Origin: Promethearchaeota archaeon
Lineage (GTDB): Archaea; Asgardarchaeota; Lokiarchaeia; Sigyniarchaeales; SOKP01
Assembly: GCA_019894975.1 (NCBI GenBank)
Contig: JAGXNO010000007.1
Location: forward strand, 1-64,000
DNA: 64,000 nt
Direction: 5' to 3'
Under the pieces are notes generated by a model. The model was given only the letters and a program-made list of their open reading frames with translations, ran no database searches and was not told the DNA's origin. The translations under genes and the position numbers were made by a program. Shown here piece by piece: positions 8,305 to 16,896 of the stretch. The stretch's first letter is position 1. Every line of letters starts with the position of its first letter.

Positions 8305-9063
8305 ATGACAAAAGATTTTTACGATAAACATAAGAACTTTTCTTCTAGAACATTAATAGAATATTATATTTCTCCCGGTATAAAGTGCAAATTCGATCTT
8401 TTAAAGACGCATATTAATACTAAAAAAATTTATAATTATGGAATCGATCTTGGCTCATCTGGGAATTCATTCTTATTCTTTTTAGATATTGTAAATCAAA
8501 AATTTTCTTTAGATATAGCAGATCTCCCCTTAAAACAATATCAGGACAAAAAGAATTGGTATCCATTATGTGGGGACCTTATGAAACTACCTTATAGAGA
8601 CGAAACTTTTGATTTCTTAAGCGTGCTTGACGTAATTGAACATATTGAAGAAGATATATCCGCAATTTCTGAGATGAGTAGAATCTTAAAGAAAAATGGG
8701 ATTCTTATAATTAGCGTACCTCATCGAATGAAGTATTATACAAACCAAGATAGATTAATTGGTCACTATAGACGATACGAAATAAACCAACTTATCTCTA
8801 ATTTCAATAAATTTAACTTAAGGAACTTAAAAACTTTTGGAGTATATGGTAGTATGATGAAAATAGCAGATATCCAGACTATAAATCCAAAAAAAATCGA
8901 AGAGAACCTGTTAAGCCTAAGAAATAAATATCAATATAGTATTGGTTTCAGAGCTTTATGGAATATTATCGTTAAATTTTTGTCCAATTTAATGAAAATA
9001 GATGCTAAATATAGAACAATTAATAAAATCAGAAACGTAGGTTTAATTTTCATAAAGAAATAG
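8305..9063 (+). CDS. class I SAM-dependent methyltransferase
   Basis: DLGSSG, LPY.D..FD, DVIEH, GHYRRY. Confidence 0.85.
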   Translation: MTKDFYDKHKNFSSRTLIEYYISPGIKCKFDLLKTHINTKKIYNYGIDLGSSGNSFLFFLDIVNQKFSLDIADLPLKQYQDKKNWYPLCGDLMKLPYRDETFDFLSVLDVIEHIEEDISAISEMSRILKKNGILIISVPHRMKYYTNQDRLIGHYRRYEINQLISNFNKFNLRNLKTFGVYGSMMKIADIQTINPKKIEENLLSLRNKYQYSIGFRALWNIIVKFLSNLMKIDAKYRTINKIRNVGLIFIKK

Positions 9064-9082: not shown

Positions 9083-9487
9083 TCAAGCACTTTCTTTTTT
9101 TAATTTTTCAAAAAGTTTTTTATATTCATCAATATACTTCTCTTGATTGGTTTGTTCAATCTTTTTGAGAAGTTCAACTGACTTTGTTAAGATTTCAGAC
9201 TGTTTTTTTATTTTCTCATAAAATATATTCTTCTTTTCTTGAGATTCTTCCAATCCTAACTGCTGTTCATAGTCCTTAATAGAAGTTCTAATTTCTTCTT
9301 GAGATTTCGCTACAGAAGACGCTAATTGGATTTTTCTTTGTTCTAATTTTATACAGTTTTCACATACAATCTCTTCGTTTTTTTCTTGCTTTCTTAATTT
9401 TTCTCCCTTCTGCATCATGAAAGGATTTTTACAACGGTCACATGCAACCAATTCAAGAACTAATTTATCAGCATTGGTATCGGGCAT
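9083..9487 (-). CDS. hypothetical protein: zinc finger (CxxC...CxxC) plus coiled coil
   Basis: CDRC and CENC followed by a charged heptad-like region. Confidence 0.65.
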   Translation of the reverse strand: MPDTNADKLVLELVACDRCKNPFMMQKGEKLRKQEKNEEIVCENCIKLEQRKIQLASSVAKSQEEIRTSIKDYEQQLGLEESQEKKNIFYEKIKKQSEILTKSVELLKKIEQTNQEKYIDEYKKLFEKLKKESA

Positions 9488-10422: not shown

Positions 10423-10560
10423 CATAACTCAGATAAACTAAAGATATAATAAAAATGAATTATGTAATTTTTTAACATTTCAATCACAAAAAATTAAAAA
10501 TAGTCAAACCTAATCTTTAATAGAATAGATATTAACAATAACTGATAGATGAGAGGGAAA

Positions 10561-10791
10561 ATGGTAAAAGTAAAAGACATTGAGAAACTCATGGATGATT
10601 TCATGATTGAACCAGAAGAAAAATTTATTGATTTAAAAAGATACCTTCTTAGTGAATTTGAATGGAAGGTAGATCCTCTAAAAAAATCTCAATTTATGAT
10701 AAGAGGTATTCCTATAGAAGATGATATAAAACTAGAAGACCTTTTAAATGCTTATCTGCCTGATGAAATAGTAATGCTTAAAGAAGTATAA
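10561..10791 (+). CDS. small ubiquitin-like (beta-grasp) protein lacking C-terminal GG
   Basis: Manual alignment to ubiquitin keeps VK, [VI]EP, K27, G47, ED, L.D and the hydrophobic core in register; GAGGG SD-like motif before ATG 10561 (alternative start 10549). Confidence 0.6.
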   Translation: MVKVKDIEKLMDDFMIEPEEKFIDLKRYLLSEFEWKVDPLKKSQFMIRGIPIEDDIKLEDLLNAYLPDEIVMLKEV

Positions 10792-12856: not shown

Positions 12857-14107
12857 ATGGTGTTAATCTCACAAAATCTTAATAGAATAAATTACATTCA
12901 ACAATATGATGAATTTGATTATTTAAAAAACTTTATTAAATCATTTGATAAAGGAACCTGTATGGGAATTTTATTGCATGGTCCCCCTGGCACAGGAAAG
13001 ACCCTTTTAGCAATTACACTAGCAAATTCTTTTAAAGCTCACTATTACATTATTGATGGTTCTCCTGATCTTGATAGGCGAGATATTGAAGGTTATTGGG
13101 AGATATTCAATGGAGAAACACAATTTAATTATGGACCATTAACGAAAGCTATTGAAGATGCTAATAAGGAGGGTATATCTTTTATTATCATTAATGAAGT
13201 TAATGCTATCAGGGAAAGCGAGCAAATTTCTTTAAATTCACTCTTATCTGAAAACCATGTTAACTTAATATCAAAGGGATTTGAAAGATACGAACTCAAT
13301 CCAAAAAGTAAGCTTGTTATAATTGGTACACTGAATAAAGGGGTTATTGGTATAAATAAACTACAAGAAGCGTTTGAAGACCGCTTTATTGTGAGTCCTG
13401 AAATAAATTATCCAATAAAACAAAAAGAAATTGAAATTGCTACTATAATTTCGGGTTGTGACAAGAATATCGCAGAACTTGTAGTTGATGTTGCAAGACA
13501 AATAAGAAAACAGGCTTTAAAAGACTTTTCAATAACAAAAATCTTCTCAACCAGGCTAATTGTAAATTTTTGCATTGTAATCTCAAGTATGTCTCCTAAG
13601 TTTCTAAGGCATAATATCGAAAATATAATTATTAACAAATTAGGAGAGAATCAAGAAGAGAAAAAGAGTATAGCCATGATTTTAGATGGTAAAATGTTTG
13701 AAGAAAAATTAAATAAATTGCTGAGGTCTGATGGGAAATCTAATGTTTCTCAAGAAGTAGAAATAGACTTAACCGAAGAAGAAGAGAATAAAAATATTAT
13801 TGCTATGAAAAAGCATGTTGATAAATACATCCAATTTTATGGCAGTACGAGTGTCTTTAAGAAAGATGGTAATATTATGTGGAAGTTTATCGAATGGTTT
13901 TGGTGCTATAATAGAAAAATTTTGAGAGACTATATACAGTTGACTAGAAAAATAGGATTGCATAATTTATACTCAAAAACCACAAGAAAAAATTATCTGT
14001 ATAACGGAGAAATAACTTTAAGTTATATAAGATGGCTCTATCAGAATAAGAAACAAGAATTGATGAATTTCATGAACATAGAATGTCCAATTTTTAATAA
14101 AATTTAA
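12857..14107 (+). CDS. MoxR/CbbQ/NorQ-like AAA+ ATPase with C-terminal extension
   Basis: Walker A GPPGTGKT, variant Walker B IIINE, GPL, AFEDRF (R-finger), STR sensor II. Confidence 0.88.
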   Translation: MVLISQNLNRINYIQQYDEFDYLKNFIKSFDKGTCMGILLHGPPGTGKTLLAITLANSFKAHYYIIDGSPDLDRRDIEGYWEIFNGETQFNYGPLTKAIEDANKEGISFIIINEVNAIRESEQISLNSLLSENHVNLISKGFERYELNPKSKLVIIGTLNKGVIGINKLQEAFEDRFIVSPEINYPIKQKEIEIATIISGCDKNIAELVVDVARQIRKQALKDFSITKIFSTRLIVNFCIVISSMSPKFLRHNIENIIINKLGENQEEKKSIAMILDGKMFEEKLNKLLRSDGKSNVSQEVEIDLTEEEENKNIIAMKKHVDKYIQFYGSTSVFKKDGNIMWKFIEWFWCYNRKILRDYIQLTRKIGLHNLYSKTTRKNYLYNGEITLSYIRWLYQNKKQELMNFMNIECPIFNKI

Positions 14108-14115
14108 ATCTAGTA

Positions 14116-16293
14116 ATGGTGATTCCTATATCCAATTTACTTGAGCTTTTTGAAAAAGATTTTATCTCAGATTCATTAGCCTTAACAAATACTGCCAAAA
14201 GAATTAGTGGTAACAATGATATTCTAATCAACTTCAACCAAAACTCTCACGTGGCTTTTACTGATGGGAAATTTATATATTTACCAAAAAATGTAAAGAG
14301 TGAAATCCCTGCTGCTCAAGGTTTAGTAGCCCATGAAAGCGGTCACATCGGTTATGGTTCATATGAATTATCCTTCATTAATTTAGTAAAAGTCATTAGT
14401 AAAAAATACATTTTACCAGAAATGCTTGTTAAAAAAATAATCAATGTTGTAGAAGATGTAAGAATCAATGTAATAAATAATATAAAATTCCCTGGTTTTT
14501 ATAAAAATTTGAGAGATCTTACCAAAAAATTATTGCCTGAGTTAAAATTAAGAATGAAAAAGTCGGGGGATATCCTAATATATATCAATCTATACATGGA
14601 AGATTATAAGGATTTTCAGAAAAAACCAAAATTTAGATCAAAAGTAATGTCTCAAGAAGATTGGAAAAGCATACATGTTGCCAAAACCTTTCTTTTAAAA
14701 ACGTTAACACCTGCATCCTCAATTATAACTATTGATCAGCTCTGTAAGATTTTGAAAAAATATTACAGAAAGAAAATTATCAGAAATATCCCGCAACATA
14801 TTCAACAATCTTCCCAAGAGAGGCATGAAAAATTAATTTATGATGAAGACTTTGGTTTTGATATTGTTGAAATTGAAAGGGGGTTTCCTTCAAAAGAAAG
14901 TTATGATTTAGAACCAGAATATGATATAGGCTCGGACGTTATGGAAGATCCTAGTTATTTTGACGAGTCTGAGTTTAATGCACGACGGGATTTTAGTCAT
15001 GTGGAAGAAGATCCTCTTTTAAACCATTATGAAGACTTCAGTGATAGAAATAAGGTAATGCAAGAAACAGAATTAAATATCACAAGTGAAAAACTTATAG
15101 AAAAAATAAAGGATTCAAATTTAAACACTAAAGATATTGAAAAGCTCATTGAAGAAATAGAGTCAATCAAAGAAGAGAAAAATGGGGAAGAGAAATCCGA
15201 AATAAATAAAAAAATTGAGAGCATCGATATTAATCCTGTCGAAATCACTGAAGAGTTTAAACAGATAATGGACTCAGAAATAAATGGAGAAGAAATTGTA
15301 AATGCAGAAAATCAGGCTGGTATAGATAGTGTAGAAGAATTATTATTAGAGAAATTAGGTAAATTCAAAAAAAAATTTGACGATTTTGAAACTCGGGGTT
15401 ATTTAGAGGAATTTATTGAAATTGTTACCGATGCTCATAATGCAATGGAAGATCGACTATTCGTAATTGAAAAGGGAATCAGTTTTGACAAATTAACAAA
15501 AGAAGGTCGTGAAAGACAGGTTAAAGAGATACGGATTGAAAACGAAACCATGAATCCGATTAAAATAACCCACAACCAAATTATAGGAACTTATAGGAAC
15601 CTAATTGCTAGGATTAAATTCATTTTTGGTGACTTTAAAAATCAAATTGATATTGATAACTTTCAAAAGAGGGGGAGATTAAATAATAAATTCATCAAAG
15701 CTGTTACCAGTGAGTTTAAGTATCAAAAATGCTTCTCAAGAAAAATTAACCAAAAAGAGCTTAAAATTCTTTTATTGGTAGATATTAGTGGAAGTATGAA
15801 AGGGATTAAATTGGAAGCGGCTAAAATTGCGATGATAATGTTATGTGAAGCACTTCATGAAATTGCTCAGCTCCGTATTGTGCTTTTTACGGGTGATTAT
15901 GATGCTTTAAACATTCTTTTGAAGGATTTTAATGAGAAACCAGATCCGAGAAAATTCGATAAGTTTGGATGTCATATTAATGTTTGTAGCAATTTAGACG
16001 GTGTTTCCATGAAACATGAAGCAAGTAAATTAGAAAAAGAAGTTTTGATTATTATTATATCAGATGGTCAACCAGCAGGATCAGGAAATTATGGATTATA
16101 TGATGCCATAAAAGAAATACACGATGTTAAAAAGATTTTTAAGGTATTTGCGTTTTCTATTGATGCTAATGGTGATTATTTAGATAAATTATATGATAAA
16201 AACTGGATTTTAACGAAGTCATCAGATAAAACAGATTTAGGAGAAAAATTAATCAAATTTTGTAAGCTTGTTGTTAAAGAGTTTTTTAGATAG
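14116..16293 (+). CDS. vWA (MIDAS) domain protein with N-terminal HExxH domain and acidic linker (CobT/NorD-like)
   Basis: AFTDG, AHESGH, N..ED.RI; D/E-rich middle; MIDAS DISGS and ISDGQP; 8 nt after the AAA gene. Confidence 0.85.
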   Translation: MVIPISNLLELFEKDFISDSLALTNTAKRISGNNDILINFNQNSHVAFTDGKFIYLPKNVKSEIPAAQGLVAHESGHIGYGSYELSFINLVKVISKKYILPEMLVKKIINVVEDVRINVINNIKFPGFYKNLRDLTKKLLPELKLRMKKSGDILIYINLYMEDYKDFQKKPKFRSKVMSQEDWKSIHVAKTFLLKTLTPASSIITIDQLCKILKKYYRKKIIRNIPQHIQQSSQERHEKLIYDEDFGFDIVEIERGFPSKESYDLEPEYDIGSDVMEDPSYFDESEFNARRDFSHVEEDPLLNHYEDFSDRNKVMQETELNITSEKLIEKIKDSNLNTKDIEKLIEEIESIKEEKNGEEKSEINKKIESIDINPVEITEEFKQIMDSEINGEEIVNAENQAGIDSVEELLLEKLGKFKKKFDDFETRGYLEEFIEIVTDAHNAMEDRLFVIEKGISFDKLTKEGRERQVKEIRIENETMNPIKITHNQIIGTYRNLIARIKFIFGDFKNQIDIDNFQKRGRLNNKFIKAVTSEFKYQKCFSRKINQKELKILLLVDISGSMKGIKLEAAKIAMIMLCEALHEIAQLRIVLFTGDYDALNILLKDFNEKPDPRKFDKFGCHINVCSNLDGVSMKHEASKLEKEVLIIIISDGQPAGSGNYGLYDAIKEIHDVKKIFKVFAFSIDANGDYLDKLYDKNWILTKSSDKTDLGEKLIKFCKLVVKEFFR

Positions 16294-16314
16294 TTCTCCT
16301 TAATTTAAATTAAG

Positions 16315-16896
16315 ATGACTAACAATATTCTCATATTTCTAAGACATGCTGAAACTAAAGTTGAAAAAGGAGTAAAAAATTCAGAGTGGTCACTCACTAC
16401 TAAAGGAAAATTGGATGCTCTAAAAATAGTAGAATCTAAACCTTTTGACAATATTAATATCATCATTGCGTCGGCTGAAGAAAAAGCTTTAAATACAGCC
16501 TATCCTTTAGCAGGGGAACTTAAAATAAAAATTCTGATAGAAGCAGATTTAAATGAAATAAAGCGAGATCATGGAAAATTTCTTGATACTCAAAGATATA
16601 TTATCACAATGAAGCAATGTATGACAATTAGAGACAAATCATTTAACAATTGGGAGACTGCAAACAATGCTTTAGAGAGATTTTCTAAAAAAATTGAAGA
16701 GATAGATTTTAAGCATGATCGCAAAAAGATATTAATTGTATCGCACGGAGTTGTCATTAACTTATATTTTGCAAAAGTTCTTGGGAAATTGGAAGATGTG
16801 TTTGATAGAGCTCAGACAAATACATTTTGTGATTATGGGATAATTCAAAATAATAATGTTATAAGAGATATTGCTACAAAAATCAGAAATCATTAA
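16315..16896 (+). CDS. histidine phosphatase (phosphoglycerate mutase-like) family protein
   Basis: RHAET, L.E, VSHG motifs. Confidence 0.85.
   Translation: MTNNILIFLRHAETKVEKGVKNSEWSLTTKGKLDALKIVESKPFDNINIIIASAEEKALNTAYPLAGELKIKILIEADLNEIKRDHGKFLDTQRYIITMKQCMTIRDKSFNNWETANNALERFSKKIEEIDFKHDRKKILIVSHGVVINLYFAKVLGKLEDVFDRAQTNTFCDYGIIQNNNVIRDIATKIRNH

Follow-up and report, generated by a model that had tools for sequence, protein, structure and literature searches.

The window analysed here, a 64,000-nucleotide stretch (positions 1 to 64,000) of contig JAGXNO010000007.1 from a Lokiarchaeial archaeon, encodes at 10561–10791 on the plus strand, stop codon included, a 76-amino-acid protein, P0001, for which ubiquitin-like protein (UBL) ancestry is probable. 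We favour, with fair rather than strong confidence, the reading that P0001 branched off from the Lokiarchaeal ubiquitin family as a divergent, lineage-restricted protein that is tail-less and acts non-covalently. In this model the protein would have retained, from helix 1 to strand 5, the core of the ubiquitin fold, exchanged the β1–β2 hairpin for a very short strand and an amphipathic helix (residues 4–13), and lost the entire C-terminal tail. The missing tail suggests that P0001 could serve as a free, non-covalent binding module.

Probable kinship of P0001 with Lokiarchaeal ubiquitin

The sequence relationship of P0001 was detected with ubiquitins of its own clade. BLASTP comparison of the protein with an 84-residue ubiquitin encoded in the same genome aligned residues 16–61 of P0001 with residues 22–65 of the ubiquitin (E 3e-4, as a single comparison), while BLASTP found no alignment with the 111-residue, E1-linked ubiquitin that the genome also encodes. 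Comparison of the P0001 family with ubiquitin by hhalign gave an E-value of 9e-4 with small profiles, and a profile of 128 family members compared with a profile of 100 Lokiarchaeal PF00240 proteins gave a probability of 79%, an E-value of 1.6e-5, and a score of 31.3 over 46 columns (residues 14–61). In the corresponding controls, 60 column-shuffled ubiquitin profiles reached a maximum score of 20.0 (median 10.8) and the reversed profile scored 11.8. At the level of sequence, this profile–profile comparison therefore provides moderate evidence, short of conclusive, for remote homology to PF00240 members. The segment with detectable homology, residues 14–61 (10600–10743, plus strand), was delimited by BLASTP, hhalign with its controls, and conservation, and it spans helix 1, the loop between helix 1 and strand 3, the strand 3–strand 4 hairpin, and the start of helix 2. 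The register to ubiquitin was obtained by chaining through the match of the 84-residue ubiquitin to polyubiquitin, and pairs I16 of P0001 with V17, K26 with K27, G49 with G47, E53/D54 with E51/D52, and D60 with D58. By sequence comparison, then, the kinship that can be detected is with the Lokiarchaeal 84-residue ubiquitin family and not with eukaryotic ubiquitin directly.

Structure prediction agrees with this alignment for most of the chain. An AlphaFold2 model of P0001, calculated from a 25-sequence alignment, has a predicted local distance difference test score (pLDDT) of 96 and a predicted template modelling score of 0.82, and a model of P0129, the most divergent member of the family (35% identical), has a pLDDT of 91 and the same order of elements. 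DSSP assigns to the P0001 model a bridge at residue 3, a helix at 4–13, a bridge at 21, and a helix at 23–32, followed by strands at 43–47 and 50–51, a bridge at 57, a helix at 58–64, and a strand at 70–75. From residue 21 onward both models follow the ubiquitin series, with the 21/57 bridge, helix 1, β3, β4, a short helix, and β5, and a small insertion of 2–3 residues in the helix 1–strand 3 loop shifts the P0001 elements relative to ubiquitin. Residues 4–13 (10570–10599, plus strand) are predicted by DSSP in the two models to form an amphipathic N-terminal helix in place of the β1–turn–β2 hairpin of ubiquitin. I7, L10, M11, and F14 have helical spacing and lie on one face, and residues 5–14 contain neither Gly nor Pro in 127 of 128 family members. 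The presence of a helix instead of the hairpin would explain why the match to ubiquitin is weak.

Searches with the models recovered ubiquitin-like folds. The top 50 Foldseek matches in the PDB for both models consisted of UBLs only (Get5 UBL, NEDD8, ubiquitin, SUMO, FUBI, and LC3), with E-values of 0.007–0.08 and template modelling (TM) scores of 0.46–0.65 over ~60 columns. A VIA search of 48,161 chains ranked Atg12, UBX, a bacterial Ubl, SUMO, ISG15, and the EccD UBL highest, and the nearest ESM Atlas neighbours were UBL clusters (TM 0.51–0.68) that included a Promethearchaeota PF00240 cluster. No ThiS or MoaD entry occurred in any top-50 structure-search list. The structural match covers exactly the part of P0001 that is aligned by the profile comparison. 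Taken alone, fold scores of this size would not establish a common fold; they are nevertheless consistent with a partial β-grasp, and no competing fold surfaced.

Several results weigh against a ubiquitin relationship. P0001 has no Pfam match (hmmscan, E <= 10), and 25 aligned family members scanned individually against Pfam gave no ubiquitin-clan match. Scans of P0001 and two divergent relatives with NCBIfam, PHROGs, and PADLOC returned nothing meaningful, and searches of PDB sequences with phmmer and with the family profile gave chance-level matches only, with no ubiquitin-clan family among them even at E-values up to 10. A genome-wide PF00240 scan (E <= 1) found eight places, and the P0001 open reading frame (ORF) is not one of them. 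The hhalign probability is 79% rather than above 95%, with both profiles being shallow (effective number of sequences ~2.3). The N-terminal third, as modelled, does not fit the β-grasp, which has a β-β-α-β-β-(α)-β order and a mixed sheet of five strands, and both structures are themselves predictions.

These nulls could be accommodated by a different explanation, in which P0001 is no relative of ubiquitin and is instead a lineage-specific small α/β protein with a function outside UBL biology, for example as a small regulator, whose C-terminal two-thirds became β-grasp-like by convergence. The helical N-terminus of the models would suit such a protein, as would the chance-level alignment to eukaryotic ubiquitin. 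Smith–Waterman alignment of P0001 to a eukaryotic ubiquitin sequence gave a score of 25, where shuffled sequences averaged 24.8 (p = 0.46); for six of seven divergent relatives the same comparison was non-significant. However, convergence would have to account for a profile–profile similarity to Lokiarchaeal ubiquitin that exceeds all 60 shuffled controls and has the structurally expected register, and for four structure searches with two models that returned almost exclusively UBLs and no competing fold. We therefore consider an unrelated origin unlikely, although it is the alternative that we take most seriously. Two individual matches from the PDB sequence searches were also rejected: MCM22 (E 0.26), which is non-significant while the models contain sheet, and UPF0297/IreB (6tif_B, E 0.14), the only PDB profile match, which is likewise non-significant and belongs to an all-helical protein while the models contain β-sheet.

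These results revise parts of a first-pass annotation made from the DNA alone, which had described P0001 as a eukaryote-type ubiquitin fold aligned in register with ubiquitin. The in-register alignment is upheld from F14 to L61 by BLASTP and hhalign, and by the secondary structure elements from residue 23 onward, but not by pairwise alignment to eukaryotic ubiquitin, and "eukaryote-type" is too strong a term for a kinship detected to a Lokiarchaeal 84-residue ubiquitin. The 3-residue insertion that the annotation proposed has a counterpart in the small loop insertion of the models. Its assignment of the N-terminal VKVK to β1, with I3, V5, L15, and V17 mapped onto the hairpin, conflicts with the helix at residues 4–13 in both models and with the near-absence of Gly and Pro there. 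The view that P0001 is closer to ubiquitin than to ThiS/MoaD is borne out by its profile and structure neighbours, which are Get5 UBL, NEDD8, ubiquitin, SUMO, ISG15, Atg8, and Ufm1. Two checks that the annotation put forward gave divided answers: among profile searches, Pfam yields no ubiquitin-clan match while profile–profile comparison with Lokiarchaeal ubiquitin does, and AlphaFold with Foldseek has only UBLs in the top 50, matched from helix 1 to strand 5, and leaves the N-terminal third outside the β-grasp.

Lack of a conjugation tail and possible modes of action

The last strand of P0001, residues 70–75 (10768–10785, plus strand), was identified from DSSP and C-terminal statistics and is the equivalent of ubiquitin β5. 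The chain stops one residue beyond it, at KEV followed by the stop codon, and has no flexible tail. None of the 128 family members ends in Gly, and 126 of the 128 have no Gly within the last 12 residues; among 120 Lokiarchaeal ubiquitins, by comparison, GG falls in the final eight residues of 95. Genes for E1, E2, or JAB proteins are found neither within ±6 kb of the P0001 gene nor elsewhere on its contig, with the ThiF, UQ_con, and JAB matches of the genome falling on contigs C55, C69, C70, C84, C89, C120, C142, and C143 (the ThiF-type E1s on C84, C55, and C142/C143), and conjugation genes are likewise missing near P0001 orthologues in the five loci examined. Thus, of two hallmarks of conjugatable UBL modifiers (ubiquitin, SUMO, NEDD8, Ufm1, Atg8/12, Urm1, SAMP, and ThiS/MoaD), a Gly tail, mature or exposed by processing, and the linked E1/E2/JAB genes typical of prokaryotic systems, P0001 has neither. 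Without a flexible Gly-ended tail the protein would not be adenylated by an E1, and without E1 activation we infer a free module that binds partners. The first-pass annotation had anticipated this part of the picture, having pointed to a lack of a di-glycine tail, to the consequent inability to undergo conjugation, which holds for the canonical route, and to the lack of E1, E2, or JAB genes nearby.

P0001 could in principle still be a covalent modifier that uses a non-canonical route, either by C-terminal processing or by activation of a carboxylate other than that of Gly. Only its general resemblance to UBLs speaks for this possibility, which we judge highly improbable: the chain ends too close to its last strand, processing could expose no Gly tail in the 126 sequences that lack Gly near the C terminus, and the locus is not linked to a gene for an E1, an E2, or a protease.

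The genome does contain complete ubiquitin systems elsewhere. Contig C84 (L021:1366-3016 and following) carries a full eukaryote-like cluster in which the 111-residue ubiquitin, ending in AG, is encoded with an E1, an E2, and a JAB protein. Contig C55 (L019:1453-1707) carries the solitary 84-residue ubiquitin, which ends in GGR and matches PF00240 with 35.8 bits. The best PDB sequence match of this solitary ubiquitin is the yeast Get5/Mdy2 UBL (E 7e-5) and not ubiquitin itself. Contigs C162 and C26 hold further, near-identical ubiquitin copies, whose neighbours are MarR/GNAT-like and old-yellow-enzyme-like genes.

Because a tail-less ubiquitin relative coexists with these systems, and because its detectable homology is to the solitary C55 ubiquitin, P0001 might act as a ubiquitin decoy, a mimic that occupies ubiquitin receptors (of the UEV/GLUE type in endosomal sorting complexes required for transport (ESCRT), the proteasome, or JAB proteins) and thereby tunes the ubiquitin system of the host. 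A decoy would be expected to present the surface that receptors recognize, and the L8/I44/H68/V70 patch of ubiquitin, which we take to map onto P0001 according to the BLASTP/hhalign register, is not kept. M46 varies among M, I, V, and L, position 72 among V, T, S, and N, and position 74, the equivalent of V70, is K or R rather than hydrophobic, while I7 lies in the helix and not in a β1–β2 loop. The failure to preserve the recognition patch argues against simple ubiquitin mimicry, as does the lack of the gene in many congeners that presumably keep a ubiquitin system, and we regard the decoy explanation as improbable.

For the reading of P0001 as a non-covalent offshoot of ubiquitin, conservation suggests a candidate binding surface. 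K26, Y28, L29, F45, R48, I52, and E69 are invariant in all members, and W35, E32, K41, G49, P51, and E75 are nearly so, with the invariant residues clustering in helix 1, the enlarged helix 1–strand 3 loop, and the strand 3–strand 4 turn. A putative interface could comprise K26, Y28, E32, W35, K41, R48-G49, E69, and E75 together with the new N-terminal helix. Prediction of a homodimer from two copies of P0001 gave no support for self-association and counts neither way. A non-covalent adaptor role of the Hub1/UBL5 kind, as suggested in the first-pass annotation, would be reasonable by elimination. A bolder version of this proposal, which we put forward as speculation that is doubtful at present, is that P0001 represents a new ubiquitin-fold sub-architecture in which replacement of the hairpin by a helix leaves an open sheet edge, and in which a tail-less paralogue docks through the helix and Y28, W35, and R48 onto a specific machine, such as one for membrane-protein handling, proteasome/Cdc48, or ESCRT.

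The P0001 gene, its locus and its distribution

The 76-codon ORF at 10561–10791 ending in KEV and a stop codon agrees with the translation of the first-pass annotation, and it is a real gene under purifying selection, as established from the ORF, its homologues, and the ratio of nonsynonymous to synonymous divergence (dN/dS). A word-indexed search of 5.8 billion proteins found 207 homologues with 72–96% identity, and HMMER, run exhaustively on 1.8 billion representative sequences, found only 10 clusters at 50% identity, all belonging to the P0001 family. Length is exactly 76 residues in 121 of 128 tabulated homologues. Among 14 orthologous genes (91 pairs), the median proportion of differences is 0.095 at nonsynonymous sites (pN) and 0.568 at synonymous sites (pS), giving a dN/dS of ~0.09 (median 0.088), with synonymous sites close to saturation. 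P0001 is 76–79% identical between genomes, compared with 51–78% for neighbouring genes, and is therefore well conserved, at the top of the range of its neighbours, yet no outlier for its genus. The protein has a mass of 9.2 kDa and is acidic (pI ~4.5). Homologues uniformly open with MV(K/Q)V and the start codon is therefore at 10561, not at the in-frame ATG at 10549, which would add four residues. A Shine–Dalgarno-like GAGGG, read from the sequence, lies 3 nt 5′ of the ATG (10553–10557, plus strand), and the corresponding position in orthologous loci holds GGAGG, GGAG, GGTAA, or GGGAA. The named homologues are all labelled "hypothetical protein" and derive from Promethearchaeota/Lokiarchaeota bins, in line with the Asgard host that had been proposed; no cultured strain was among the homologues listed.

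P0001 had also been described as a stand-alone protein, and the database searched contains no fused, longer forms of it. One 109-residue protein, P0123 (L031:96-425), combines a Cys-rich N-terminus (CFCG...CEDC) with UBL residues 20–76, so that the N-terminal helix is replaced. This fusion is present on a single 949-nt metagenome contig and probably arose as a chimera during assembly; a genuine gene of this kind would amount to a natural swap of the N-terminus.

The neighbours of the P0001 gene encode a TauE/SafE protein, PurU, UbiA, a methyltransferase, an ACT protein, a protein with a Zn ribbon and a coiled coil, and an AAA+/vWA pair. Directly 5′ of P0001 on the same strand lies the TauE gene, an arrangement that the window shares with most orthologous loci of the genus and that raises the possibility of P0001 serving the TauE/SafE-type membrane exporter as an accessory subunit or a regulator. 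The spacer between the two genes suggests otherwise. MAFFT alignment of 13 upstream regions revealed a conserved element in the orthologous loci, consisting of AAAATTTATAAATT, ~10 nt, and then TAA..TTTAATTG, which sits ~20 nt past the TauE stop codon, precedes the UBL start by ~55–90 nt, and exceeds the remaining spacer in conservation. The window holds a diverged copy of this motif as an AT-rich promoter-like element (10487–10530, plus strand). From its sequence, the element would correspond to a promoter with a B recognition element (BRE) and TATA box followed by an initiator region, with transcription predicted to begin ~25–30 nt past the TATA-like motif, and P0001 would then form a transcription unit of its own; the element could also hold the site of a regulator. 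Moreover, in the second genus that has the family, the P0001 orthologues are flanked by genes for UbiA and an α/β hydrolase, and TauE is either 5 kb distant or missing from the locus; elsewhere, TauE persists without the UBL. In a congener with a 100%-complete genome, TauE is followed by the next gene after 75 nt with no UBL between them, and in a sister genus (g12) the slot 3′ of TauE holds an 89-residue predicted membrane protein (L032:3118-3387, minus strand) and no UBL. A dedicated role with the exporter accordingly strikes us as improbable too, despite the adjacency. The genes adjacent to P0001 are not the same in the two genera, and synteny points to no partner.

The favoured reading of P0001 as a lineage-restricted protein is matched by its distribution. 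The family is present in 35 of 53 species of its own genus and in seven of 10 species of one other genus of the same taxonomic family, and in none of 83 other genera (400 genomes of the phylum examined). Judging from the TauE loci of the 100%-complete congener and the sister genus, the absences seem real. One subgroup of the genus lacks both the UBL and the neighbouring Zn-ribbon gene, while other species lack the UBL alone, and these differing patterns of absence suggest more than one loss of the UBL gene. The gene is thus accessory and dispensable, and its range comprises two genera within a single family; this patchy pattern, with absence from the sister genus, could reflect either loss or transfer. 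The locus 3′ of TauE seems to be a small hotspot at which short genes are gained and lost.

Two other features of the neighbourhood were noted. The Zn-ribbon gene (9083–9487, minus strand) encodes a 134-residue protein with an N-terminal CxxC...CxxC zinc ribbon, a long coiled coil, and no Pfam match. The gene is shared by 12 of the 13 genera in the taxonomic family and always lies next to a class I methyltransferase gene (8305–9063). This protein was rejected as a specific partner of P0001, its distribution being far wider than that of the UBL. Further along the window, at 12857–16896, an operon encodes a MoxR/CbbQ-type AAA+ ATPase (AAA_5 and CbbQ_C domains), a 725-residue protein without a Pfam match, and a histidine phosphatase, and the order of these three genes is kept in a related genome (L004).

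Significance and comparison with known systems

Asgard archaea offer the best window on the rise of the eukaryotic ubiquitin world. Eukaryotes have many non-conjugated UBL adaptors, and the P0001 family may have taken the same step within a Lokiarchaeial lineage, through loss of the tail and of the linkage to enzymes and through remodelling of the surface. On the speculative sub-architecture proposal above, it would be an archaeal example of non-conjugated UBL adaptors arising from ubiquitin by duplication, and if the models are right, a fold that is otherwise very conserved would have been remodelled in an unusual way at its N-terminus. The family is unannotated, with neither a Pfam nor an NCBIfam model, and we found no description of it in the literature; it is probably a lineage-specific, remodelled, and non-conjugatable ubiquitin paralogue that has not been described in the literature found. 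With its restriction to two genera and its dispensability, the family has little bearing on the last common ancestor of Asgard archaea and eukaryotes or on eukaryogenesis.

Among known proteins, the Lokiarchaeal 84-residue ubiquitin (PF00240) is the sole family with detectable sequence kinship to P0001, from helix 1 to helix 2. The two are of similar size, are encoded by solitary genes in the same clade, and the yeast Get5/Mdy2 UBL ranks among the best PDB matches of each. In contrast to P0001, the 84-residue ubiquitin matches PF00240 and ends in GG(R), while P0001 has a predicted helical N-terminus, a 2–3-residue insertion between helix 1 and strand 3, no tail, and a range of only two genera. 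In Atg8, helices precede a complete β-grasp, whereas in P0001 the helix is predicted to replace the hairpin, and Atg8/LC3/GABARAP, Atg12, and Ufm1 are all conjugated through a C-terminal Gly that P0001 does not have. Searches of P0001 against the Pfam families PF02991, PF04110, and PF03671 gave no match. Asgard Ufm1 homologues are widespread, having been reported in nine major clades from structure-based proteome surveys (PMC12962969), unlike the narrow P0001 family.

The non-conjugated UBLs provide functional parallels. The Get5/Mdy2 UBL (3zdm_C) is the best or near-best Foldseek match for both models (E 0.018 and 0.012; TM 0.51–0.56). It is not conjugated and binds the N-domain of Sgt2. It is, however, one domain of a larger protein and has the N-terminal hairpin, while P0001 stands alone and is predicted to lack it. 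A partner from the Get pathway was considered and rejected: PF16546 (SGTA_dimer) was not found and GET4 scored 17.5 bits, below the cut-off, in a genome that is 95% complete, so that absence is unproven. Hub1/UBL5 is a canonical β-grasp protein with a C-terminal aromatic pair that binds the HIND elements of spliceosomal Snu66, a type of partner that is not known for P0001, and is universal in eukaryotes, in contrast to the two-genera range of P0001, which is no closer to Hub1 than to UBLs at large. YukD/EsaB and the EccD UBL belong to type VII secretion loci, a context that is lacking at the P0001 locus, and share no sequence similarity with it. What P0001 has in common with Hub1/UBL5, the Get5 UBL, and YukD/EsaB is functional, in that it is likewise tail-less and unlinked to enzymes.
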